Positions 50,296 to 62,095 of a stretch of DNA of 64,000 bases are shown here, in pieces; within the stretch, counting starts at the first letter, position 1, and each line of letters begins with the position of its first letter. The DNA is from Parcubacteria bacterium C7867-005. GTDB taxonomy: Bacteria > Patescibacteriota > Minisyncoccia > Phycocordibacterales > Zambryskibacteraceae. A program made the translations under genes and the position numbers. The notes under the pieces are model-generated. The model did no database searches, was not told where the DNA came from, and saw only the letters and a list, made by a program, of their open reading frames with translations. The stretch spans positions 156,848 through 220,847 of the forward strand of contig LFCO01000001.1 in the NCBI GenBank assembly GCA_001189165.1. Direction: 5' to 3'.

Positions 50296-50703
50296 CTAAG
50301 AACTGTTCTTTTCTAGATACTCGTCGATGGCCTCTTTGGCCTTAGCCACAACTTCTTTTGGATTGTACTCACTCTTTACTAAATATTTTACCGCTCCGAG
50401 TGCCAAGGCCTTTTCAGCGTCTTCTTTGCCAGCTAGATTCGTCAGACAAATAACAACGGGAATTTTTTTGAATTTCTCATTGTTTTTCATTTTTTCCAAT
50501 ACTTCTAGTCCATTCAGCTTTGGCATCATTATATCGAGCATCATCACCACAGGAAGTGGGTCCATTTTTTCAAGTTTTTCCAAAGCTTCTATACCATCTG
50601 AAGCCATCTCCACTTCATAACCAGATAATTCAAATATGTTCTTGTACATATCAGACATCAACGAATCGTCCTCTACTATAAATACTTTTATTTCTTTGGC
50701 CAT
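50296..50703 (-). CDS. response regulator, receiver domain only (CheY-like)
   Basis: KVFIVEDD, MLDIMMP (phospho-acceptor Asp), conserved T and K; no output domain. Confidence 0.85.
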   Translation of the reverse strand: MAKEIKVFIVEDDSLMSDMYKNIFELSGYEVEMASDGIEALEKLEKMDPLPVVMMLDIMMPKLNGLEVLEKMKNNEKFKKIPVVICLTNLAGKEDAEKALALGAVKYLVKSEYNPKEVVAKAKEAIDEYLEKNSS

Positions 50704-50749
50704 TGGTTTTTAGTTATCTTGTTTACTGAATTCGCAGACAGAGCATATA

Positions 50750-52936
50750 TTATGCAACGACGACAGGGAGGGACAACCTGAATGTACTACCCTCGCCCAA
50801 ATCGCTCTTAACTAATTCTATTGTACCACCCATTTCTTCAGCCAAAAGCTTGGAGATATACAGCCCCAAGCCCGTGCCCTTACTGGAATCTCTGGTCAGT
50901 ATCTTTTCACCCGCCTGTTGGAATTTCCTAAACAACAATGACTGATTTTCCTTGGATACTCCCTTACCGGTGTCTTCGATGATCACATCCGCGAACCCTT
51001 CTCTGGCCTGAAGGGAGATGGTGATACCCCCTTTCTCCGTATAATTTATCGCATTGCCCAAAAGATTATTGATAATTTGTCTTGTCCTTTCAACATCAGC
51101 AAAAGCTTCTGGCACAGCCTTATCAGAAAGCTTAAATTCAAGTGATAATTTTTTATTTTTGGTGAGCTGTTCCGTCTCTTGGACAACCTGATTTATCATT
51201 CTAACAAGATCTATGGGTTTACTATCAAAGACTATTTTTCCTTGCTCAAGTCTAGACATGTCCAAGAAATCATTCACAATTCCTATCAAACTTTTGCTTG
51301 CAGTATGTATATTATGAATCATGTTTTTCTTCTTTTCTTCATCAAGTTTGGCCCAGTAGTCGAGCATCATATCCGCATTACCACGAATAGCAGTAAGTGG
51401 TGTTCGGAGTTCGTGGCTAGCCACAGCAAAAAATTCTTCTCTAGAACGCTCAGTAACCTTTCTCTCAGTTATATCCTCAAGGAGGATGACGTAGCCGATT
51501 TTATTCTTTGATTCATCAGCCAATAGAATTGGAGCAATAATGGCGCGGAGTGACTTTTTATTAAAGAATATCTCGTTTATTTCACAAACTCTTTCTCCCT
51601 CAAGGCATTTTTTAACCTGATCTTTCAGGTCGAAGCTCTCTCCCATCATCTTAGATACATCTCCTACAGTAAGTTCCTTATCTTCATTTATTCCTAATAA
51701 ATCAACAAGGGCATGATTTTTCAAGAAGATCGTGTCATCTACATTAGCGATGATAAATCCAAGGGACAAGCTGTTTATTGATGCGAGCAACCTTGCCTTT
51801 TCCTCATTCAATTCTTTTGTTCGCTCGACAACTTGTTGCTCAACATTTTTCATTTGAACAGCTAATTTCTCTTCGAGGATCTTGTCATCCTCGAGCAAAT
51901 TAATCATGGCTTTCTTTGTTTCCTCGAGGTCAACAAGTTTTTTGTCGAGTTCTTGAGTTCTATCTTTTATTTTTGCTTCCAAACCAATCGTATACTGAGA
52001 AATGCTCTTCACCATGCCATTGAAGGCATTGGCTAGTGTCTCAAGCTCGTCATTTGTATTTATATGGGTCACCGTATCGAGCTTTCCCTTACCAAACTCC
52101 TCAACAGCAGAAACTAGCTTATAGAGTGGGTTTAAGATGAATTGCCGAACAGACAAAATAGTACCCAGGCTAAAAAATATAGATCCTATAACTGATATTA
52201 GAACTAGCCTTCTCCTCGCCTCTTGCTCTGTTTCATCAAGGGCACGTGTGCTTTTTTCTATGGAGTCATTTGTCCGGCTTATTAACTCTCTCATTTTTAT
52301 ATTTGCGAGCTCAGTAAACTCACGGGCCTTGTCTATAGAAATTTTTGATTTCTGTTTCTCTTGTTCTGAAGCTATATTTCTATTTTCTTTTTTAAGGTTT
52401 AAGAAGTTCAATCTGTGCTTGATAGCATCTTCTGCGTTGTTAACAAAGCCCGTATAGTAAAGATTTATCTCACCAGTGATCTGCGAATCACCCTTCATCA
52501 CCCCGTCGACCACAAGTTCATCCCTTAACCCCAATTTAATCCATTGATCATAGTTTTTACCACCTGAAGAATTTTTAAAAGCATCCGTCTCACTACCCCA
52601 CATGAGAGCTGCCATAAACATATTAAAACGATCAGTAGATTCACTGAACACCCTTACATAACCACTAACATCAGGTATTTTTTTGGGGTCGTCTATATCC
52701 AAAACACTCTCAAGAGCTGTTTGCCCCTCAACAGCAGCGGACAGCGACTCCTGCAGGCTCCGTACCACAGGAACATTTGTTTTAGTAATATTATCTGCAG
52801 ATGATCTAATCCGATTCAATTCAAAAATCTGAGTCCCAACAATACAAATGACAAAAAATGTAAGGGAAATGTAGAACGGTGCGAGCTTCCACTGTATTCC
52901 AAAAAAAGACTTGTTTTGTGGGCTATTTATAGTCAT
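50750..52936 (-). CDS. sensor histidine kinase (periplasmic sensor, HAMP, coiled coil, PAS, HisKA, HATPase_c)
   Basis: Two TMs flanking a sensor domain of about 230 aa; H-box FAVASHELRTPLTAIRG; N/G-boxes NLLGNAINYT, DTGKGV, GTGLGL. Confidence 0.88.
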   Translation of the reverse strand: MTINSPQNKSFFGIQWKLAPFYISLTFFVICIVGTQIFELNRIRSSADNITKTNVPVVRSLQESLSAAVEGQTALESVLDIDDPKKIPDVSGYVRVFSESTDRFNMFMAALMWGSETDAFKNSSGGKNYDQWIKLGLRDELVVDGVMKGDSQITGEINLYYTGFVNNAEDAIKHRLNFLNLKKENRNIASEQEKQKSKISIDKAREFTELANIKMRELISRTNDSIEKSTRALDETEQEARRRLVLISVIGSIFFSLGTILSVRQFILNPLYKLVSAVEEFGKGKLDTVTHINTNDELETLANAFNGMVKSISQYTIGLEAKIKDRTQELDKKLVDLEETKKAMINLLEDDKILEEKLAVQMKNVEQQVVERTKELNEEKARLLASINSLSLGFIIANVDDTIFLKNHALVDLLGINEDKELTVGDVSKMMGESFDLKDQVKKCLEGERVCEINEIFFNKKSLRAIIAPILLADESKNKIGYVILLEDITERKVTERSREEFFAVASHELRTPLTAIRGNADMMLDYWAKLDEEKKKNMIHNIHTASKSLIGIVNDFLDMSRLEQGKIVFDSKPIDLVRMINQVVQETEQLTKNKKLSLEFKLSDKAVPEAFADVERTRQIINNLLGNAINYTEKGGITISLQAREGFADVIIEDTGKGVSKENQSLLFRKFQQAGEKILTRDSSKGTGLGLYISKLLAEEMGGTIELVKSDLGEGSTFRLSLPVVVA

Positions 52937-52945
52937 CAGTTCGTA

Positions 52946-53581
52946 CTACAATAAATTTTTTATGACAGATAGATCAAATACGCCCTTGAGCACGCCGTGA
53001 ACTTCTCCTGATGCGGGGTCTATGATTGGCAGATATATGGATATAGCTTCAGTCTGTGAGCTATCGTCAAATTCTATGTCTCCGTGAAAAGTTCTCCCCT
53101 TACCCTCATTAAAGCTTTTTATCCACCAATCCTCGTCTGCCTGGTAATAATCGCTAGTCTTCTCTGTCTGACCGACGTTTAATCCAAAAGCATCAGCCAC
53201 GAAAATCTCTTTAAAACCAGGATTTTTCTTTTGAAACTCTAGGAGATGTGTGGCTGTCTTGTTTTCTAAGAACATTTGCGTGAATTGACTTATGCCCATC
53301 GATTCTCTCCATGTTTTATCTATAGCAAGAATGTCTTCTAAACTAGTGTTTTTGTTTATCTCGTTTGATTTTTTAGTTTCTTCAATTATCTCTGTGACCA
53401 GTACTAGAGTTTTTAAAAGTGATATCTGCTGATCAATTATATTTTCGATTTGTGGGGCAAGAGTGGCTGTCTCTTTAATCTCTGTTTTAGTAGATATATC
53501 TTTTTTATTTGCTGTATAAAGATAAATACCACCCGAAGAAATTATTATTACAAGAACAACAAAAGTGACAATTTTTTTCAT
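52946..53581 (-). CDS. membrane-anchored extracytoplasmic sensor-like (Cache/PDC-fold?) protein
   Basis: N-terminal TM then a 190-aa domain; fold assignment is inference; operonic with the kinase. Confidence 0.5.
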   Translation of the reverse strand: MKKIVTFVVLVIIISSGGIYLYTANKKDISTKTEIKETATLAPQIENIIDQQISLLKTLVLVTEIIEETKKSNEINKNTSLEDILAIDKTWRESMGISQFTQMFLENKTATHLLEFQKKNPGFKEIFVADAFGLNVGQTEKTSDYYQADEDWWIKSFNEGKGRTFHGDIEFDDSSQTEAISIYLPIIDPASGEVHGVLKGVFDLSVIKNLL

Positions 53582-53583
53582 AT

Positions 53584-54315
53584 TTAATGTAACTTATTTT
53601 CAAGCTCGGTAATCTGTGCTTTCAGGTCGGCCATCTTTATCTCTCTACCCACCATCAACTTATTCACCCTCTCTAATTCTGTGTTTTTATCAGTCAGTAG
53701 CTTATCCATATTCTTGATTTCAGTGATGTCGTTTTCAATCTCAACAAAACCCACTATTTCTTCTGTCTCTTCATTAAAAATTGGGGAGATTGATATCTGT
53801 GCAGTGTAGATATCGCCACTTTTCTTTTTGTTAACCATCTCGACACGGAAAACATCCTTCTTAGTGACGATACTTTTAAACATTTCCACATATTCGTTCT
53901 CGGTTAAATGCTCCATCCACTGCATCAAGTTTTTACCAATAGACTCTTCTTTACTAAATCCAGTAAGTCTTTCTGCTGCTCCATTCATATAGACAACGAT
54001 GCCGTTTTTATCAACAATGACGATGTGCCCACTCGTGTTTTCAACCGCTACTTTATATTTCTGCAAATCGACTGTCATATCAGAAGCAATTTTTTCAGCC
54101 CGTACGTTTGCTGATGAAAGGCCATACACCATAGAGTAAATCAAAAAACTGATCAGGATGCCGATACCAAAATAACCATTCAACTGTGCAGTTGGGACAC
54201 CATTATTTTGTATAATAAACCACCTCCAGACTACATAGACAGTCCCTAGTGTGACTGCCAATACAATAAGATCAACGTGCTGTCTCAAGGCCCTTGCGGT
54301 CCTTTGCGTGTACAT
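53584..54315 (-). CDS. membrane protein with PAS domain and C-terminal coiled coil, no output domain
   Basis: Two TM helices; PAS-like VENTSGHIVIVDKNGIVVYMNGAAERLTGFSKEESIGKNLMQWM; coiled-coil tail. Confidence 0.6.
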   Translation of the reverse strand: MYTQRTARALRQHVDLIVLAVTLGTVYVVWRWFIIQNNGVPTAQLNGYFGIGILISFLIYSMVYGLSSANVRAEKIASDMTVDLQKYKVAVENTSGHIVIVDKNGIVVYMNGAAERLTGFSKEESIGKNLMQWMEHLTENEYVEMFKSIVTKKDVFRVEMVNKKKSGDIYTAQISISPIFNEETEEIVGFVEIENDITEIKNMDKLLTDKNTELERVNKLMVGREIKMADLKAQITELENKLH

Positions 54316-55134: not shown

Positions 55135-55575
55135 ATGTCGGAGCAAAAAGATAAAATTATGATATTGGATGACGATCCACTTCTCGTGGATCTATATTCA
55201 ACAGCATTTACCTTGTTCGGCTACGAAGTAGTCACGGGGTTTCGCGGTGACGAAGGTTTGCAGAAACTAATAGACATGGATATCAAACCTATTATCATAC
55301 TGTCTGACGTGATGATGCCGAACATGCATGGATTAGATTTCTTGAGAAAGATTAAGGAGGACCCAAAATTAAAAACTATTCCTGTCGTACTTTTGACAAA
55401 CCTGGATGGAACAGATGATATCCGAAGAGGGCTGGAGCTCGGTGCGGTAACTTATATAGTAAAAAGTGCCTATTCACCAAAAGAAGTTGTGAATAAAGTT
55501 AAGGAAATCCTAGCTGGTTATGACAGAGAGAAAACTCCTGAGGTCAAGACTATTATAAAGGGCCTTAGCTCGTAA
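55135..55575 (+). CDS. response regulator, receiver domain only (CheY-like), paralog of 50296..50703
   Basis: IMILDDDP, ILSDVMMP, LLTNL, KS/AYSPKEVV, all alignable with the other receiver. Confidence 0.85.
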   Translation: MSEQKDKIMILDDDPLLVDLYSTAFTLFGYEVVTGFRGDEGLQKLIDMDIKPIIILSDVMMPNMHGLDFLRKIKEDPKLKTIPVVLLTNLDGTDDIRRGLELGAVTYIVKSAYSPKEVVNKVKEILAGYDREKTPEVKTIIKGLSS

Positions 55576-57007
55576 GATAGATCGTGAGTCGGTAGAGGGG
55601 TAAAATAAGGCCCAAAACGATCAAAACGACGATCAGGATGGTCATCTGATTCGTAGTTTCCGCACTATGGACCAGAGCACCGGGTGTTGTGCTCAAAACC
55701 ACGGTGGCCACATCATTATCTTCACTGTTTTGAATTTTGAAAGACTTACCGATTATATCTTGATCCAATAATTTCATACTCCCCCAAAATTCATCTTTGG
55801 GAATAGATGTAGTAGACTCCGGCAAAAAGGTGGTGCTTGCATAAACTTTATTGTCTACAAATAAACTGGTTTCAAACCCTGAATTATCTTTGAAGGAATC
55901 GGTGAATTCTTTATCGAGCAGGTAACCAACCATGACAATACCTATAACCTTGCCCTGAAAATAAATTGGAGAAGTTGCTCGGATAGACAAACCCTCTGGG
56001 CCGACAACATCTACAGAAGTGGCACTTCTACCCTCTAGAGATTCTTGACCAACACTCTGACTAAGGAGATTTTCTCCTTGGGTAATAGGGAAATTATTCT
56101 TGAAATAAACAGAACCATCTCTTGATGCCACCGACATAAACTGAATACCTGTATTAGATAGAATACGATTTCCGATAGTGCTTAAATCTTCGATGTCACG
56201 AGCTTTGGCAGCGGATGCAAAATCTAAATTATTGGATATGATCTGGCTAGTAGCCAGAGCACGACTCTCCAAGCTGTCTATCTGCATATTTAGTATTTTT
56301 TCGCTAGCAGCAAGACCTCTCAATGTTTCGTTTTCTAAACTTCGCAAAAAGAAACTGGAGAAAGTAGTGACAATTAGTAACGCAATAAAAAGACCATTTG
56401 ATACGAAAATTATCAACATCTCTTGACGTACTCTAAAACTAAGCAGGTTCCATATCCAGAGTGTAATAGAGACAAACCCGAGGAATTTAAGCGCATATTC
56501 TAATATCCACATTATATTCAAAGACCAGGGATCAACGAAATTTGAGATAATTGAAGCGAGAGAAAGTAAGACGAAACCGAATGCGAGCCACTTAAGTAGT
56601 TTATTAATATCTTTGTAGTACTGCTTAAATAACAAAAAGCTCAGAAGTATCAAAAATATGGTTGGTAGAATATTGAAATTCGTAGCTATATTAAAAACTG
56701 GAAGAGCTAGAAATGCATAACTTGGTTTGTCAGGAAGTTTTTCAAAGGCGTAGCTCAGTAAAATACAAAGAAGGCCCACCGAATATACAGTTAAGGACAA
56801 ACGCAAAACAACGCTAGAACTACCGCCAACTGCACTGAAAATTTGCCACACACAGAGAGCCCAAAAACCAACTGATCTTATAAGGCTATATTTGTCTCTC
56901 TTGATTAAATAGGCCTTGAAAAAGAGCCACCCAGCAATAAAAAAGGTGATAGCACCAAACAATTCAATCCCCAAATGAAAGTTATTTAGAATTAAAAAAC
57001 TTGACAT
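55565..57007 (-). CDS. 7TM receptor-like membrane protein with extracytoplasmic Cache-like domain and C-terminal TM, no output domain
   Basis: About 7 N-terminal TM helices, a 230-aa soluble domain, terminal TM MTILIVVLIVLGLILPLY; domain fold inferred. Confidence 0.55.
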   Translation of the reverse strand: MSSFLILNNFHLGIELFGAITFFIAGWLFFKAYLIKRDKYSLIRSVGFWALCVWQIFSAVGGSSSVVLRLSLTVYSVGLLCILLSYAFEKLPDKPSYAFLALPVFNIATNFNILPTIFLILLSFLLFKQYYKDINKLLKWLAFGFVLLSLASIISNFVDPWSLNIMWILEYALKFLGFVSITLWIWNLLSFRVRQEMLIIFVSNGLFIALLIVTTFSSFFLRSLENETLRGLAASEKILNMQIDSLESRALATSQIISNNLDFASAAKARDIEDLSTIGNRILSNTGIQFMSVASRDGSVYFKNNFPITQGENLLSQSVGQESLEGRSATSVDVVGPEGLSIRATSPIYFQGKVIGIVMVGYLLDKEFTDSFKDNSGFETSLFVDNKVYASTTFLPESTTSIPKDEFWGSMKLLDQDIIGKSFKIQNSEDNDVATVVLSTTPGALVHSAETTNQMTILIVVLIVLGLILPLYRLTIYLTS

Positions 57008-57035
57008 TGTTTATATATAATACACCCAATTTGTT

Positions 57036-57569
57036 TTATCTACCGAGCGCTTTGATTTTATCTTCTAAATCTTTTAGAACCAGTGGACCAACAATGACTT
57101 CCCGTTTTAATCCCGATCCATCTATAAATACAAACATGGGCAACACACTTATACTGTACGCGTCGCCCACAATACCTTCTATATCGAGTAATGTATCCAA
57201 GGTGATATTTTTATCATTCAAAACCTTGTTAACAACGTCCAAATCTTCTTGGCTATTGATAGCCAAAATTTCTAGATTTTTTGGAGAATAGCTAGCATAA
57301 TAGTCAGCCAAAGCCCCTAGCTGATCGACGGCAACTGTATTCCAGGACGTCCAGAAAAATAGAACTACATTCTTGCCACGTAAGTCAGAAAGTTTTATCT
57401 TGGTGTTTTGCTGATTCTCTAATACAAAATCAGTAGCAACAGGAATCTTGTTTAAACCAACTTTAAATCCGATGTTCTGAAAAAAGTGAGGTGCAAGAGT
57501 AAAGACGAAATACACACACAAAACGAGTATGAAAATAGAAGTAGATACGATAATTAGATTCTTTTTCAT
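57036..57569 (-). CDS. thioredoxin-fold (TlpA/redoxin-like) protein lacking the CxxC active site
   Basis: LRGKNVVLFFWTSWNTVAVDQL aligns with FWASWCGPC of TlpA but both Cys are replaced (S-W-N-T). Confidence 0.6.
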   Translation of the reverse strand: MKKNLIIVSTSIFILVLCVYFVFTLAPHFFQNIGFKVGLNKIPVATDFVLENQQNTKIKLSDLRGKNVVLFFWTSWNTVAVDQLGALADYYASYSPKNLEILAINSQEDLDVVNKVLNDKNITLDTLLDIEGIVGDAYSISVLPMFVFIDGSGLKREVIVGPLVLKDLEDKIKALGR

Positions 57570-60181
57570 ATGTCAAATAAATTAAAGAATCTATCTACGA
57601 AGGATGGTTTCTTGAGCCCCGCCTTAGTATGAACCTGATCTTTTTCCAGAACCCTCACATTAGCAATAAATTTTTCAACTTTATTTCCATAAACATCTTC
57701 TGCCAAAATACTTAGACGTGACACACCTAATTCATAGAAAGAAAGAGTGGCAGTCCTCAGACCAGAGTCTCTGTCCAGGGTCAAGTCCACCAGCCTATCA
57801 TTTACCTTAAAGACAATCTTTTTTGGATCACCGGCGATAGCAATCCTAAATAATGCCGTACTACTCGCTTCCATATTAAAGAAGCCTTCTTGATCTGGAT
57901 ATAAAATCTGATCATTTAAATCTAGAATGAAACTTCCAATCATAGGAGGTGTTGCGTCTACTATGAATTTTTTGGTGAGCGTTTTTGAAATATTATTTGC
58001 ACGATCTATCGCACGAGCAGACAACGTGTGCTCACCGTCTACAAGGCTGTTTTTATGATCAATTCTAAATCTGGAGTATTTTTCACCGACCGGACCACTG
58101 ATCAATGCCTCAAACCAAGCTGAATCGTCAATCTTGTACTCAATTATTTTTATCCCTGAAAAATTATCCCTACCCTCCCCCTCCAGACTAACTATTCTGG
58201 TTTTGGATATAACAACAGGAGCAAGCTGGGAGAAGAAATCGGAAGCAAGTATTGGAGACTGGTCGTCAAAAACTATTTTGAGGCCCTGAGCATTGGTCAC
58301 AATTTTACCACTTTCGGAAATTCCTCTGAGCACTATTTCAAGAGCGCCGGTTTTTAAATCAGCAAAAACCAAATCAAATCTTTCAAAAGCAGAGCCCCAC
58401 CGCCCATCTTCTGGTAAGATTGCCTTCCATGTTTTTTCATTATCCAAGCTTAGCTCCATTTTTACTAAAAGATCTTTTTTACTCCTGACCATACCGCTTA
58501 TCGTCTTAGATTTTGAAGAGGTAAATAGGCTATCGCTTTCTTCCAAAATAATAGCCGGGAGATCATTGGTTATGGTTATGGGGTGGCTTACAACATCTGA
58601 ACCCAGTGAACCGTCAGACACTGAAACTTTTATCAAGTAATTCGAACTGTCCCTGGCTCTTGTCGAATCCCAGACAAAATGCGATTCTTTGGTGTTCTGA
58701 TGAAGTGGTGACCAGCTTGATCCACTGTCGTCACTCAGCTCTATTTTATATGTGAGCGGATCATCGTTTATATCGTTTGCCTTCCATGAAATATTTATCA
58801 AGCCATTCAGCTTCAATGCACGGCTTTTTGGCTCAACCAAGGAAATAGTAGGTGGACTATTCACAAAGATGACTATCTGGGACGGCTCTGATAGGGCACC
58901 GAGCTCATCAACACTCACTAAACTTATCACGTTTCTACCCTTATCGAATTTCGGATTGAGGGCTATATCTTTCAAGCTAAATAATCCATCACTTTTTATA
59001 TTTTTTATGCGGTACTCTTTGGTATTGTTTACTTTGATAATTATTTCTTTGGCATTCACCGCCTTACCCGAAATAGATTCAAGAGTTGTGCTGGAAGTTT
59101 TTAGTCCATCCTTTGGTATATCCACTGTTGGTCTCGAAGGGGGGTCGAAACCGACAACGAAACCATCTCTATTCTCTACAATGTTCTTATTACCCGCCAA
59201 ATCTACCCCCTCTACATATACCTCAACCGGACCATCAAACCCCTTGATTGGGCTATACTGGCCGACAAAAATCCTTTTTGGAGCACCGAATCCAAAAGTA
59301 ACATCTATTGGTTCATGACGGAGTTGAGAAACTTTAAAAACAGGTGCGTAAATCAAGGATTCTGAACTCTCGATTTTGATTTGAACCGGCTCTCCCCTTG
59401 AAAAGCTGGGTGAGTATGTAGTTATAAAAGTTGGAGGAGTATTGTCTATGGTAATTGGGCCGTCTATATATTCACTGAAAGCACCGTCAGTATCAACTAC
59501 GTGAGCTTTTATCCTGTAATCCGAGCCATCTGGGAATTTCTTGGTGTCCCAATAAAAAGTACCTGTGGCCCTCAGGTTTTTTGCTAATTCAGAATATAGA
59601 TCATTGGATTTGGCATAAAACAAACTAACTGAATCTGTATCCAGTTGCCCTCCTTCTGATTCGTTATTACTTAAGTCATTCTTGTCTTCAGCTACATATT
59701 CTACTGGGACCAACCCAGAGATAAATACCCTACCAAAACTTTTGAAAAATTTTATAGTTGGTTCAAAATTAGTATAAGTACTATTTGATCCTCCACCACC
59801 GCCGCTACTAGCAGCCTGGCATTCTCCACCCAGTGGGTCAACGAAACAAACACTATCATTTGAGTCAACCCAATAATCAACCCCAGGATCTCCCGTTAGG
59901 TTGTAGCACTCTGTCATGTTTAGTGGTCCACAGAGATTGTCATCCGGATTCAACAAAACTCTAAAGTGAAGACCCTCAAAGCCCTGGCCGCTATAAACGT
60001 ATGGTGAACCACTCTGACCAGCCCAATATGATCCCTCACTACTAACTAAATAACCGAATGCGACACCTGGTTCTGTCAGTATAGGAGTAATGGACCCATC
60101 CTCATTATCAACAAGAGTCACACTTGCGAAAGCTGGGGTAACCCAAAAAATAAATAGGAATATTAAAAATAGTTTTTTCAT
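57566..60181 (-). CDS. large secreted cell-surface protein with Cys-rich N-terminal region and multiple Ig-like/beta-sandwich repeats
   Basis: Signal peptide MKKLFLIFLFIFWVTPAFA; Cys pairs (LCGPLNMTECYNL...SVCFVDPLGGECQ); Gly-rich linker; repeated beta-strand-rich segments of about 90-100 aa; 4-nt overlap with the downstream redoxin-like gene. Confidence 0.65.
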   Translation of the reverse strand: MKKLFLIFLFIFWVTPAFASVTLVDNEDGSITPILTEPGVAFGYLVSSEGSYWAGQSGSPYVYSGQGFEGLHFRVLLNPDDNLCGPLNMTECYNLTGDPGVDYWVDSNDSVCFVDPLGGECQAASSGGGGGSNSTYTNFEPTIKFFKSFGRVFISGLVPVEYVAEDKNDLSNNESEGGQLDTDSVSLFYAKSNDLYSELAKNLRATGTFYWDTKKFPDGSDYRIKAHVVDTDGAFSEYIDGPITIDNTPPTFITTYSPSFSRGEPVQIKIESSESLIYAPVFKVSQLRHEPIDVTFGFGAPKRIFVGQYSPIKGFDGPVEVYVEGVDLAGNKNIVENRDGFVVGFDPPSRPTVDIPKDGLKTSSTTLESISGKAVNAKEIIIKVNNTKEYRIKNIKSDGLFSLKDIALNPKFDKGRNVISLVSVDELGALSEPSQIVIFVNSPPTISLVEPKSRALKLNGLINISWKANDINDDPLTYKIELSDDSGSSWSPLHQNTKESHFVWDSTRARDSSNYLIKVSVSDGSLGSDVVSHPITITNDLPAIILEESDSLFTSSKSKTISGMVRSKKDLLVKMELSLDNEKTWKAILPEDGRWGSAFERFDLVFADLKTGALEIVLRGISESGKIVTNAQGLKIVFDDQSPILASDFFSQLAPVVISKTRIVSLEGEGRDNFSGIKIIEYKIDDSAWFEALISGPVGEKYSRFRIDHKNSLVDGEHTLSARAIDRANNISKTLTKKFIVDATPPMIGSFILDLNDQILYPDQEGFFNMEASSTALFRIAIAGDPKKIVFKVNDRLVDLTLDRDSGLRTATLSFYELGVSRLSILAEDVYGNKVEKFIANVRVLEKDQVHTKAGLKKPSFVDRFFNLFDI

Positions 60182-60239: not shown

Positions 60240-60992
60240 TTAGGCGGGCAGACTGAAATCCCCTACTCTGGTGCGTTTAATCCAAAAAGTAGCTGCTCCT
60301 ATTTCGAAAAATTTACCCATCTCATTCACCAAACCCCGAATATACGTGCCACTAGAAACACTGGCAGTAAATGAAGAGATGAGGAAATGCTCTTCTCTAG
60401 AATTTTCTAGGGCATGTCTCCAAGATCCAGATATTTCTTCTTGTCTGAAATCACCTTTCACTAAATTTAATTTATGTTTTATTTGTTCACTTAAATCTGC
60501 TTTTGAAACAAGGCGTGTATCCTGATGGCTTAAATCAAAGATTTTTATTCCTTTTTGTGGTACATCAATTTCTTCCATCTTGTTTTCCCTGGCCCACTGA
60601 AACAGGGGTTTTCCTCCAACAGTCCTCGATGAGTACGGTGGATATACTTGAACCTTTTTATTCTTTATCTCATCTAATAATCTCTGCATTTTTTCTTCAA
60701 TCTTCTTTGGCATCTCCCCACTACCAGAGACCACTCTGCCCAACACGTCATAAGTATCCGTACTGAAACCCCATAGAACATCGAATTCATAGGTTTTGTC
60801 CTGTAGAAGATACTTATCCTTACCCCTGGTATCACCAGAGAGAACGAGCAAGAGTCCTTCGGCTAGTGGGTCTAGGCGCCCAAGATAGGTCATTTTCTTT
60901 GACTTGTATTCTGGGTTTGCATCCTTAAACCGAAGAATGCATTCAAGGGGTGTTTCCCCCAGGTTTTTATAGAGTTTTAGTAACTCGGGCAT
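60240..60992 (-). CDS. truB: tRNA pseudouridine(55) synthase TruB-like
   Basis: GRLDPLAEGLLLVL (catalytic Asp motif), YPPYSSRTVGGKPLFQWAR; TATTAT -10 6 nt upstream of ATG with no SD, so possibly leaderless. Confidence 0.75.
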   Translation of the reverse strand: MPELLKLYKNLGETPLECILRFKDANPEYKSKKMTYLGRLDPLAEGLLLVLSGDTRGKDKYLLQDKTYEFDVLWGFSTDTYDVLGRVVSGSGEMPKKIEEKMQRLLDEIKNKKVQVYPPYSSRTVGGKPLFQWARENKMEEIDVPQKGIKIFDLSHQDTRLVSKADLSEQIKHKLNLVKGDFRQEEISGSWRHALENSREEHFLISSFTASVSSGTYIRGLVNEMGKFFEIGAATFWIKRTRVGDFSLPA

Positions 60993-61009
60993 TCCTGTAT
61001 AATACAGCC

Positions 61010-62095
61010 ATGTCCAAGCTTGATACTAGCCCTTATAAGGGAGTCCGCGACTTCTATCCAGAAGATCAGTTCATTCAGAGCTATATTTTTGACACCTGGA
61101 GAAAGAGCGTAGAAAATTTTGGCTACGAAGAATATGAAGCCTCAGTGCTAGAACCATCAGAAATCTATAAGGAAAAATCTGGAGAAGAAATAGTAAACGA
61201 GCAAACCTTCACTTTTAAAGATAGGGGTGGCAGAGAAGTTACCCTTCGACCAGAGATGACCCCGACTGTAGCCCGCATGGTTGCTGCACGTCGTAGGCAG
61301 CTTGGTTTTCCACTGCGCTGGTATTCGATTCCTAACCTATTTCGATATGAAGCTACACAGAGAGGTAGACTGCGTGAACACTGGCAATTAAACGTTGATT
61401 TGTTTGGAGTTTCTGGGTACGAAGCGGATGTAGAGCTAATCGTTTTGGCTGATAAAATTTTAAAGAAATTTGGAGCAAAAGAGAACGACTATGAAATAAG
61501 ATTAAACGCGACTGGAGCAATTACATTAGAAATGCTCGGTGACTTTATTGAGAAAGAACTTAAACCAAGAGGTGTTGCCAATGCTCTCATTGATGAGAAA
61601 CTAGCTCGTGGACAGGCATACTACAATGGTATTGTTTTTGAATTTTTTGATACGAACCCCCAAAACCCAAGATCTATCCTCGGTGGAGGAAGATACGACA
61701 ACCTCACCGAACTTTTTGGAGAATCAAATATACCGGTTGTTGGTTTTGGCGCGGGGGATGTAACAATTAAGGACTTTCTTGAAACACACAAACTTCTTCC
61801 CATTTACAATCCAAAAACAGAAATCTATGTGATACCAGCACCTGAAAGTGAAAAATCAATTGAAGAAATAAGCTCCATTGTTGAGTCAATTAGAAATTCA
61901 AATGTTAACGTCGCTATCGATTGGTCATACAAAACTATTGGAGATCAAAAGAAAAATGCACTTAAACTGAAAATTCCATTTCTACTTGTCATTCGCGAAA
62001 ATCATATTAGGTCTGGAATATTTGAAATTGAAAACTTAATCACGGGTGTAAAGAAAGAAGTTTCGTTAGAGGAAATACCTGGATGCGTAAAATAG
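61010..62095 (+). CDS. hisS: histidyl-tRNA synthetase (compact)
   Basis: Class-II motifs EVTLRPEMTPTVARMV, RWYSIPNLFRYEATQRGRLREHWQLNVDLFG, GGGRYDNL; start at ATG 61010 (MSKLDTSPYKGVRDFYP) preceded by TATAAT at 60998-61003. Confidence 0.88.
   Translation: MSKLDTSPYKGVRDFYPEDQFIQSYIFDTWRKSVENFGYEEYEASVLEPSEIYKEKSGEEIVNEQTFTFKDRGGREVTLRPEMTPTVARMVAARRRQLGFPLRWYSIPNLFRYEATQRGRLREHWQLNVDLFGVSGYEADVELIVLADKILKKFGAKENDYEIRLNATGAITLEMLGDFIEKELKPRGVANALIDEKLARGQAYYNGIVFEFFDTNPQNPRSILGGGRYDNLTELFGESNIPVVGFGAGDVTIKDFLETHKLLPIYNPKTEIYVIPAPESEKSIEEISSIVESIRNSNVNVAIDWSYKTIGDQKKNALKLKIPFLLVIRENHIRSGIFEIENLITGVKKEVSLEEIPGCVK

Follow-up and report, generated by a model that had tools for sequence, protein, structure and literature searches.

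What could a secreted beta-sandwich protein, a thioredoxin-fold protein whose redox cysteines are lost and an output-less membrane receptor do together? The question is raised by three co-directional genes on the minus strand of a window of 64,000 nucleotides, the whole stretch of DNA analysed here (contig LFCO01000001.1, positions 156,848 to 220,847), from Parcubacteria bacterium C7867-005, a groundwater bacterium whose metagenome-assembled genome (MAG) of 563 kb comes from the Hanford site (PMC4508563). The genes encode an 871-aa multi-domain protein (hereafter the large protein), a 177-aa protein of the ResA/TlpA family (the pseudo-redoxin) and a 480-aa receptor with seven transmembrane (TM) helices and a Cache ectodomain (7TM-Cache). 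The stop of the large gene and the start of the redoxin gene overlap by 4 nt, as an earlier note made from the sequence alone had recorded, with the shared letters ATGA (57566–57569), and a 28-nt gap (57008–57035) separates the redoxin stop from the receptor start. The operon proposed in that note is borne out as an operon-like unit by these overlapping or near-abutting frames and by a gene order that is kept in dozens of loci. On balance, the locus is probably a copy of a conserved module, specific to Patescibacteria of the candidate phyla radiation (CPR), that builds an extracytoplasmic sensory assembly of four parts. The earlier note overlooked the fourth part, a conserved receiver-only response regulator, as well as the two-component genes around it. 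Since the module is embedded in such genes, the emphasis moves from an adhesin to a sensory apparatus.

The cysteine-less ResA homologue

The 177-aa protein exceeds the Pfam cut-offs for AhpC-TSA (68.2 bits, cut-off 26) and Redoxin (41.1 bits, cut-off 26.6), matches the Bacillus subtilis ResA structures in phmmer (E = 7e-16, residues 45–170, 126 residues) and scores 87.1 bits with the NCBIfam ResA subfamily NF002854, which is below the curated cut-off of 170. It has a single N-terminal hydrophobic anchor, as has ResA. In the alignment to ResA, FWGTW-CEPC-KKE pairs with FWTSW-NTVA-VDQ, so that the equivalent of CxxC is N77-T-V-A80. The earlier note was right about the loss of CxxC but had its replacement as SWNT, which is off by two in register; the alignment to ResA that it proposed as a check gives CEPC to NTVA and no conserved cysteine elsewhere in the frame. 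The sole cysteine, C18, is a non-conserved residue of the membrane anchor. Q83 and G85 stand at the positions of ResA Glu80 and the proline that follows it. P144 of the cis-proline loop does not vary among clade members or canonical relatives; its cis conformation is assumed by homology. Of the features that define TlpA, ResA and DsbE, the protein thus retains the fold and the cis-Pro loop and lacks both CxxC and the Glu/Pro pair. Selenocysteine or another form of recoding at the active site is ruled out, as the frame is uninterrupted and the codon reads Asn in the standard code.

Both active-site cysteines are absent from all of the first seven orthologues. Motif scans of genomes and metagenomes followed by hidden Markov model (HMM) annotation of 115 loci yielded 39 distinct clade members, all of which have N/Q-x-x-S/A in place of CxxC (39/39) and most of which have no cysteine at all (36/39). 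An exhaustive phmmer scan covered 1.84 billion representatives. FW[TA][ST]W-N-x-x-[S/A] was the reading in all of the nearest single-domain relatives, occasionally with D, S or H, and CxxC proteins appeared only lower in the list or as multi-domain summed matches. Among the top 150 matches, 48 of 48 single-domain cysteine-less representatives (of 50%-identity clusters) carried W-[N/D/S/H]-x-x-[S/A/G], and these were compared with 33 canonical single-domain relatives. Both sets share the cis-Pro and the core of the fold. The canonical relatives keep C-P-P-C, whereas in the clade the first cysteine is replaced by Asn in 88%, the second by Ser or Ala, and the Pro-Pro dipeptide is lost. The equivalent of ResA Glu80 is Glu in 94% of the canonical relatives versus Gln (62%) and Lys or Arg in the clade, and the proline after it, present in 91% of the canonical relatives, is lost. 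Clade-specific conserved residues are hydrophobic (L143, F148), the others being shared fold residues, and no additional invariant polar constellation was seen in the 48 representatives. Judged from these alignments, the loss of the cysteines is a fixed property of the whole clade and not a one-off, and the 177-aa protein is a ResA/TlpA homologue that cannot act as a thiol-disulfide oxidoreductase. Its public name, 'thiol:disulfide oxidoreductase related to ResA', was given despite the absent redox cysteines and is functionally misleading.

The frequency of Asn at the site of the old nucleophile could be read as a sign of a cysteine-independent enzyme that acts on the large protein or an envelope substrate by catalysis or by binding of a small molecule or metal, and W-N-x-x-S/C has recurred independently in Bacteroidota, Rhodothermales, Verrucomicrobiota, Planctomycetota and a peat-metagenome clade. 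Tolerance of D, S, Q and H at the same position, the hydrophobic nature of the clade-specific residues, the lack of a further polar constellation and the loss of the active-site-tuning Glu and Pro residues make this reading improbable. The residues found at the first cysteine position (N, D, S, Q or H) are mostly good helix N-caps, from which we infer structural upkeep of helix 1 rather than chemistry. A second alternative is that the gene is a functionless, decaying relic of a res/ccm-type cytochrome-c maturation operon and that its clustering with the neighbouring genes is historical. ResA is indeed the closest characterised relative, and B. subtilis resA is part of an operon with the resDE two-component genes. 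Their metabolic capacity is severely reduced (PMC4508563), which would also fit a relic, and we assume that cytochrome c maturation is absent from these organisms. A decaying gene is hard to reconcile with intact frames of uniform length in 39/39 loci and 48/48 cluster representatives, with a coherent replacement motif and many invariant residues, and with the translational coupling to the large gene that is kept. Genes for ResB, ResC and CcdA occur in no flank of the loci examined, and the Pfam families of CcdA/DsbD and of cytochrome-c maturation were found neither in the window region nor in the flanks of seven related loci. A relic is strongly disfavoured and in our view very improbable. 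With the redox machinery dismantled and the fold and cis-Pro loop kept, the pseudo-redoxin would rather be a non-catalytic binding subunit.

A second cysteine-less TlpA-like clade (L082–L107, e.g. L093:5848–6453, L106 and L083:5866–6456) has proteins of ~197 aa with FWATWNN[GTV]S, derives mostly from metagenome contigs of the Ga018x/Ga030x/Ga033x series and is without large-protein or Cache neighbours. Its genes are flanked, by eye, by those of a kinase-like ATPase (anti-sigma-type) and a STAS-like protein on one side and by those of an ABC-transporter ATPase and a permease on the other; given these other neighbours, the replacement of Cys by Asn in the TlpA fold has arisen repeatedly and in different settings. 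Envelope proteins of Bacteroidota, Rhodothermales, Verrucomicrobiota and Planctomycetota (L009–L035) also contain TlpA-like domains, there with W-N-x-x-S or W-N-x-x-C. Examples of these multi-domain proteins are found in loci L013, L014, L018 and L027 and as proteins P0049, P0070, P0069, P0088 and P0157, and in some such chains a degenerate redoxin is combined with FN3, Big_13 or FG-GAP domains and with a further redoxin domain whose CxxC is intact. By analogy, these fusions hint that the TlpA fold may cooperate with beta-sandwich arrays.

Gene set, receiver regulator and two-component neighbours

The order of large gene, redoxin gene and a dCache_3 gene of ~460–500 aa was found in 6/6 contigs recovered through large-protein orthologues and also in L008; the short contig L006 breaks off inside the third gene. 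Across the clade, the large gene is directly upstream of the redoxin gene in 27 of 30 assessable loci, with gaps of mostly −4 to +8 nt and a 4-nt overlap in 10 of the 27, and a 7TM-Cache gene is situated downstream in 28 of 35. The module derives from CPR-rich groundwater, sediment and lake metagenomes and from MAGs labelled Patescibacteria, Parcubacteria or Saccharibacteria. A gene set that recurs in dozens of uncultured relatives looks like an undescribed surface sensing device and not like a chance cluster. In a single case (L003:7204–8505), which may be coincidental, TusA and a YeeE/YedE-type gene for sulfur transport (Sulf_transp) come after the module.

The 146-aa regulator is encoded in the window by an inverted gene that converges on the receptor gene, their 3' ends overlapping by 11 nt. 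Its receiver (REC) domain scores 68.8 bits with Pfam Response_reg (residues 8–122), with the acidic pocket and the Lys visible in the alignment, and no output domain follows, as in stand-alone CheY-like receivers. The protein is 52–65% identical to the product of a REC gene directly upstream of the large gene in seven loci (L001, L002, L006, L008, L040, L045 and L046). Past the receiver domain, it and these orthologues have in common a tail of ~20 aa, AGYxR(D/E)xxVPEVKxxIK, which could be a docking peptide. The tail is absent from the regulator at 50296–50703 and from the short receivers of a second sub-group of loci, in which a shorter receiver gene directly follows the receptor gene. By its orthology and position, the receiver-only regulator is a conserved fourth member of the module.

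Two-component genes are frequent around the module. Among long loci (at least 9 kb), a response regulator was present in the flanks of 14/17 versus 4/30 controls (Fisher p = 4e-6) and a histidine kinase in 13/17 versus 3/30 (Fisher p = 7e-6). L004 has the same kinds of genes in similar order (7TM-Cache, PAS protein, kinase, REC); there, sensor domain and kinase form one fused protein. In the window, a signalling island extends over 50.3 to 60.2 kb, and its minus-strand genes at 50296–54315 are the probable partner phosphorelay, judged to belong to the module from their proximity alone. Sensor parts that are usually fused stand here as separate small genes beside a kinase with its own HAMP and PAS domains. 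Together with the output-less 7TM-Cache protein, the split TM-PAS and TM-Cache genes suggest a general 'split sensor' style of this genome.

Large protein, receptor and the proposed assembly

The N-terminus of the large protein is hydrophobic and resembles a signal peptide (MKKLFLIFLFIFWVTPAFA|SV). A cysteine-containing head and a Gly-rich linker follow, as the earlier note had described; all four cysteines (84, 92, 112 and 121) are within the head, and SSGGGGGS begins at residue 123. The heads of orthologues have 2 or 4 cysteines in the same region and almost always an even number. Mean pairwise identity among orthologues is 20% for the head versus 37–52% for the stalk domains D1–D7, and the orthologues are 37–41% identical across 81–85% of the length. 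In the AlphaFold2 (AF2) model (mean predicted local distance difference test, pLDDT, of 69 overall), the head is not confidently modelled (pLDDT <50), and D1–D7 are all-beta by DSSP in blocks of mostly pLDDT 70–90. Structure prediction, the check that the earlier note had suggested, thus supports a multi-domain beta-sandwich architecture, with seven domains where about six repeats had been counted. Comparison of the domains with hhalign related D1 to D4 (98%), D1 to D6 (93%) and D5 to D6 (90%), the other pairs being weak. By these profiles, D1 and D4 alone are clearly homologous and D1, D5 and D6 more weakly so, and the domains are heterogeneous rather than a repeat array; near-identical tandem repeats are ruled out. 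Of the 'giant Ig-repeat surface protein' of the earlier note, a secreted multi-domain beta-sandwich protein therefore remains, neither giant at 871 aa nor repetitive.

The large protein has domain matches above threshold to Big_13 (Pfam, 29.2 bits, cut-off 27) and to the OmpL47-type barrel domain NF047446 (NCBIfam, 42.2 bits, cut-off 40, residues ~670–742), which together with the secretion signal is in keeping with Ig-like surface proteins; Foldseek returned generic strings of Ig/FN3/MG domains only. A helix at 861–868 of the AF2 model closes the chain, and inspection by eye of the 27 listed orthologues showed a similar terminus, [FWL]xx[KRDE][ILV][ILV]x[FLY][FLI], in the majority, exceptions being L001/L043, L038 and L071. 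Neither a wall-sorting motif nor a membrane segment was seen in the large protein, so it would be tethered by a partner or by the C-terminal helix. Small genes for '23S rRNA intervening sequence protein'/bAvd-like four-helix bundles stand between or beside module genes at L001:7794–8186, L001:9743–10114 and L062:3402–3890. Proteins of the bAvd type accompany diversity-generating retroelements, and these neighbours could be relevant to the variable head.

The 480-aa receptor matches dCache_3 at residues 229–401 (Pfam, E = 1.8e-15). In its AF2 model (mean pLDDT 75; segment 91–110 of low confidence), a bundle of seven TM helices is followed by a long stalk helix and by the Cache ectodomain, which is of the alpha/beta type; an eighth TM helix (TM8, residues 444–479) then ends one residue short of the stop. 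None of the 29 full-length orthologues (458–527 aa) has an output domain, the C-terminus extending at most ~12 aa past TM8, and the earlier description as a 7TM-Cache receptor without output is upheld by the model and the orthologues alike. As in Cache TM sensors, the ectodomain is placed between two TM helices; the cytoplasmic transmitter of such sensors is missing. Neither MCPsignal nor HAMP was found in the receptor at E < 0.1, and the model has no cytoplasmic region; the GenBank name 'methyl-accepting chemotaxis protein' is a mis-annotation and functionally misleading. The Cache domain is extracytoplasmic in all characterised Cache sensors (PMC4822843), and by analogy we assume the same here.

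The top conserved residues of the 29 orthologues are located in the membrane bundle and include the polar N9, R44, E89, R192 and E195, and in the ectodomain conservation is limited to structural Gly, Pro and Val. This domain resembles CitA, DctB and LuxQ, and its distal Cache module is 27–28% identical to CitA. Citrate or dicarboxylate binding as in CitA was considered; the binding Arg of CitA (R93A position) aligns to Val and the remaining Arg is not conserved in the orthologues, and no ligand was assigned. A CcdA/DsbD-like electron shuttle was rejected, the receptor cysteines 52 and 81 in the membrane helices being absent in 5/5 aligned orthologues. Residues 1–220 belong to no curated family and gave only sub-threshold matches to DUF5985 and DUF7521. 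Run against the 115 loci and the window, an HMM of residues 1–222 matched nothing but orthologues, and no kinase with the same bundle was found there; a HisKA_7TM kinase is present as a separate gene in L002.

Based on these architectures, we propose the following assembly. The secreted, elongated large protein would be the antenna, the fast-evolving, disulfide-containing head of which meets the stimulus. The pseudo-redoxin, with its thioredoxin fold and cis-Pro binding loop kept, would be a non-catalytic adaptor or tether that holds the large protein, the Cache ectodomain or both through the ancestral cis-Pro-loop surface, all three ectodomains lying outside the cytoplasm. The tight translational coupling suggests that its binding partner is the large protein, perhaps contacted through the C-terminal amphipathic helix of the latter. 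The receptor, a bundle of seven helices similar to that of G-protein-coupled receptors (GPCRs) with a double-Cache ectodomain and without cytoplasmic output, would be the transducer; as it has no output, the signal would have to be passed to other proteins by contacts within the membrane or at its surface. The tailed receiver-only regulator and the neighbouring histidine kinases would form the phosphorelay that is reached by these receptor contacts, signalling thus running inward within one physical complex. The stimulus is possibly contact with the surface of a host or partner. The earlier note had thought of host or partner recognition too, which is a plausible guess in view of the variable head and of the symbiotic lifestyle proposed for Parcubacteria (PMC4508563). 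More specifically, and tentatively enough that we think it rather unlikely in this full form, the module could be a contact sensor of ultra-small episymbionts, in which a variable-tipped antenna, a dead-ResA co-receptor and an output-less transducer act by intramembrane contact on kinases and a tailed CheY-like protein.

Several observations weigh against a sensory assembly of this kind. The Cache gene is absent in about one fifth of the clade loci (L057, L059, L062, L063 and L072), and most of these (L057, L059, L063 and L072) keep the large gene beside the redoxin gene, so the receptor is not obligatory for the pair. Across receptor orthologues, the Cache domain has no conserved polar ligand-pocket residues. 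The membrane model of the receptor, built from 7 sequences, is of moderate confidence and its GPCR-like match tentative, and the positive-inside rule does not fix the orientation of the bundle: loops 1–2 (KRDK) and 4–5 (KQYYKDINK) are both strongly positive, though three helices apart in the model. Three long loci have no kinase or regulator genes nearby, and the controls for the enrichment of signalling genes, found by the same motif, come from other phyla.

The main rival takes the large protein as an adhesin or structural fibre and the pseudo-redoxin as its private holdase or anchor, comparable to a redox-inactive b'-type domain of protein disulfide isomerase, the 7TM-Cache and two-component genes merely regulating the pair or being neighbours. 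The survival of the pair in the four Cache-less loci just named is in its favour, and so is the linkage of large and redoxin genes, which is the closest in the module (27/30 loci, with many 4-nt overlaps). It would also account for a large protein that lacks a membrane anchor of its own and is closed by a conserved amphipathic helix, next to a pseudo-redoxin that has such an anchor, and long beta-rich proteins of Parcubacteria have been interpreted as adhesins (PMC4508563). It leaves unexplained, however, why the Cache gene is kept in 28/35 loci and why the module is abutted by a specific REC orthologue. Lacking a DNA-binding domain, the REC protein cannot by itself regulate transcription of the operon, and an output-less receptor is hard to explain without partners. 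We regard an adhesin with its anchor as possible but doubtful, and continue to prefer the sensory assembly, the parts of which are listed with the neighbouring genes in Table 1.

Table 1. Coordinates of the module genes, their parts and neighbouring genes in the window, and of tailed receiver genes in related loci
Feature	Position	Strand	Basis
Large secreted multi-domain beta-sandwich (Ig/FN3-like) protein 'Big', 871 aa	57566–60181	−	Open reading frame (ORF)
Variable Cys-containing head, aa 20–122	59816–60124	−	Cys count, identity, pLDDT
Gly-rich linker, aa 123–138	59768–59815	−	Sequence
Seven predicted beta-sandwich domains D1–D7, aa 139–848	57638–59767	−	AF2 model, DSSP
C-terminal tail with short amphipathic helix (…FVDRFFNLFDI)	57569–57637	−	AF2; ends at redoxin-gene overlap
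Membrane-anchored cysteine-less ResA/TlpA-family thioredoxin-fold protein (pseudo-redoxin), 177 aa	57036–57569	−	Pfam, NCBIfam, PDB ResA
Active-site remnant F72-W-T-S-W-N-T-V-A80 (ResA FWGTWCEPC)	57330–57356	−	Alignment to ResA
Retained cis-proline loop L143-P144, aligned to ResA 'LP'	57138–57143	−	Alignment
7TM + double-Cache + TM8 receptor without output domain, 480 aa	55565–57007	−	ORF, dCache_3, AF2
N-terminal seven-helix membrane bundle, aa 1–216	56360–57007	−	AF2; most conserved receptor part
Stalk helix + Cache ectodomain, aa 217–443	55679–56359	−	dCache_3, AF2
Receiver-only response regulator with conserved C-terminal tail, 146 aa	55135–55575	+	Pfam Response_reg
Multi-TM orphan protein, ~seven hydrophobic helices, 256 aa	54355–55125	+	ORF
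TM-PAS protein (TM + PAS + coiled coil), 243 aa	53584–54315	−	Pfam
TM-Cache protein (TM + half Cache domain), 211 aa	52946–53581	−	Pfam
HAMP-PAS histidine kinase, 728 aa	50750–52936	−	Pfam
Second REC-only protein, 135 aa	50296–50703	−	Pfam
Tailed REC genes of related loci	L001:4226–4660, L002:136–585, L008:1392–1829, L040:2883–3341, L045:2838–3287, L046:2833–3294		

The 256-aa multi-TM protein is encoded by a gene wedged between the TM-PAS gene and that of the 146-aa regulator. It matches no Pfam or NCBIfam family and has no homologue in any related locus, and it was rejected as a paralogue of the receptor bundle or a module member (BLASTP E = 0.5). Scans of the locus for promoters and terminators gave counts not above those of shuffled sequence. 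Upstream of the module, the genes at 60240–60992 (minus strand) and, divergently, 60950–62095 (plus strand) share 43 nt of their 5' ends if their first start codons are taken; translation of the latter gene probably does not begin at the GTG at 60950 but further downstream, a later ATG being the likely true start.

Significance and comparison with known systems

Patescibacteria, whose genomes are tiny, are believed to rely on other cells, and to our knowledge almost nothing is known about how they sense partners or surroundings. Neither the cysteine-less TlpA clade nor this module in Patescibacteria is described in the literature that we searched. That a four-gene module is kept across many tiny CPR genomes points to a need for it. 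The pseudo-redoxin clade would be a clean case of a redox fold recruited to a non-redox role, and a receptor with its most conserved residues in the membrane opens signalling through intramembrane partners to experimental test. Antenna, adaptor, transducer and tailed receiver are a concrete candidate set for reconstitution, and a contact sensor built from them, if true, would be a new bacterial transmembrane signalling architecture with a non-redox job for the TlpA fold.

Among known proteins, the pseudo-redoxin is closest to ResA, TlpA and CcmG (DsbE), with which it shares fold and family, the N-terminal anchor, the FWxxW segment and the cis-Pro loop. Unlike in these, CEPC has become NTVA (N-x-x-S/A in the clade), the Glu80 equivalent and the following Pro are gone, and the gene has no CcdA/DsbD or cytochrome-c maturation neighbours, being coupled instead to those of an Ig-like protein and a Cache receptor. 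The thioredoxin fold without CxxC serves as a peptide- or protein-binding module in the b and b' domains of protein disulfide isomerase (PDI) and in ERp29-type proteins. The working mode proposed for the pseudo-redoxin, in which binding is presumed, is like theirs, whereas they are eukaryotic proteins of the endoplasmic reticulum with no detectable sequence kinship beyond the fold.

The pairing of a separate, genetically coupled extracytoplasmic protein with a receptor ectodomain that has no conserved small-molecule pocket recalls LuxP and LuxQ by functional analogy only. In that system, the co-receptor protein binds to a periplasmic double-PAS/Cache domain of the sensor, which itself is free of ligand. 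LuxP has a periplasmic binding-protein fold and the pseudo-redoxin a thioredoxin fold, and LuxQ has its own kinase and receiver, whereas the receptor here has neither and begins with a seven-helix bundle. YycH and YycI are single-pass proteins with extracytoplasmic domains that control WalK via contacts in or at the membrane (PMC7355866). The concept of small, anchored, non-enzymatic extracytoplasmic proteins beside two-component genes is common to both systems; their folds are unrelated, the sensor here is without a kinase domain and its interaction with a kinase is hypothetical. In contrast to 7TMR-DISM and HisKA_7TM proteins, the receptor gives no Pfam match to 7TMR-DISM_7TM or HisKA_7TM and has no intracellular module, and its sensor domain stands between the bundle and a closing eighth helix. 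Its likeness to eukaryotic adhesion GPCRs is by fold only, as seen in a moderate-confidence model. The large protein, finally, has the signal peptide, the beta-sandwich chain and one match each to the Big_13 and OmpL47-type domains in common with Ig-like surface proteins of these types. It differs from them by the lack of a recognised wall or membrane anchor and by a fixed, orthologously conserved order of seven domains, a variable head, a conserved C-terminal helix and the pairing of its gene with that of a pseudo-redoxin.

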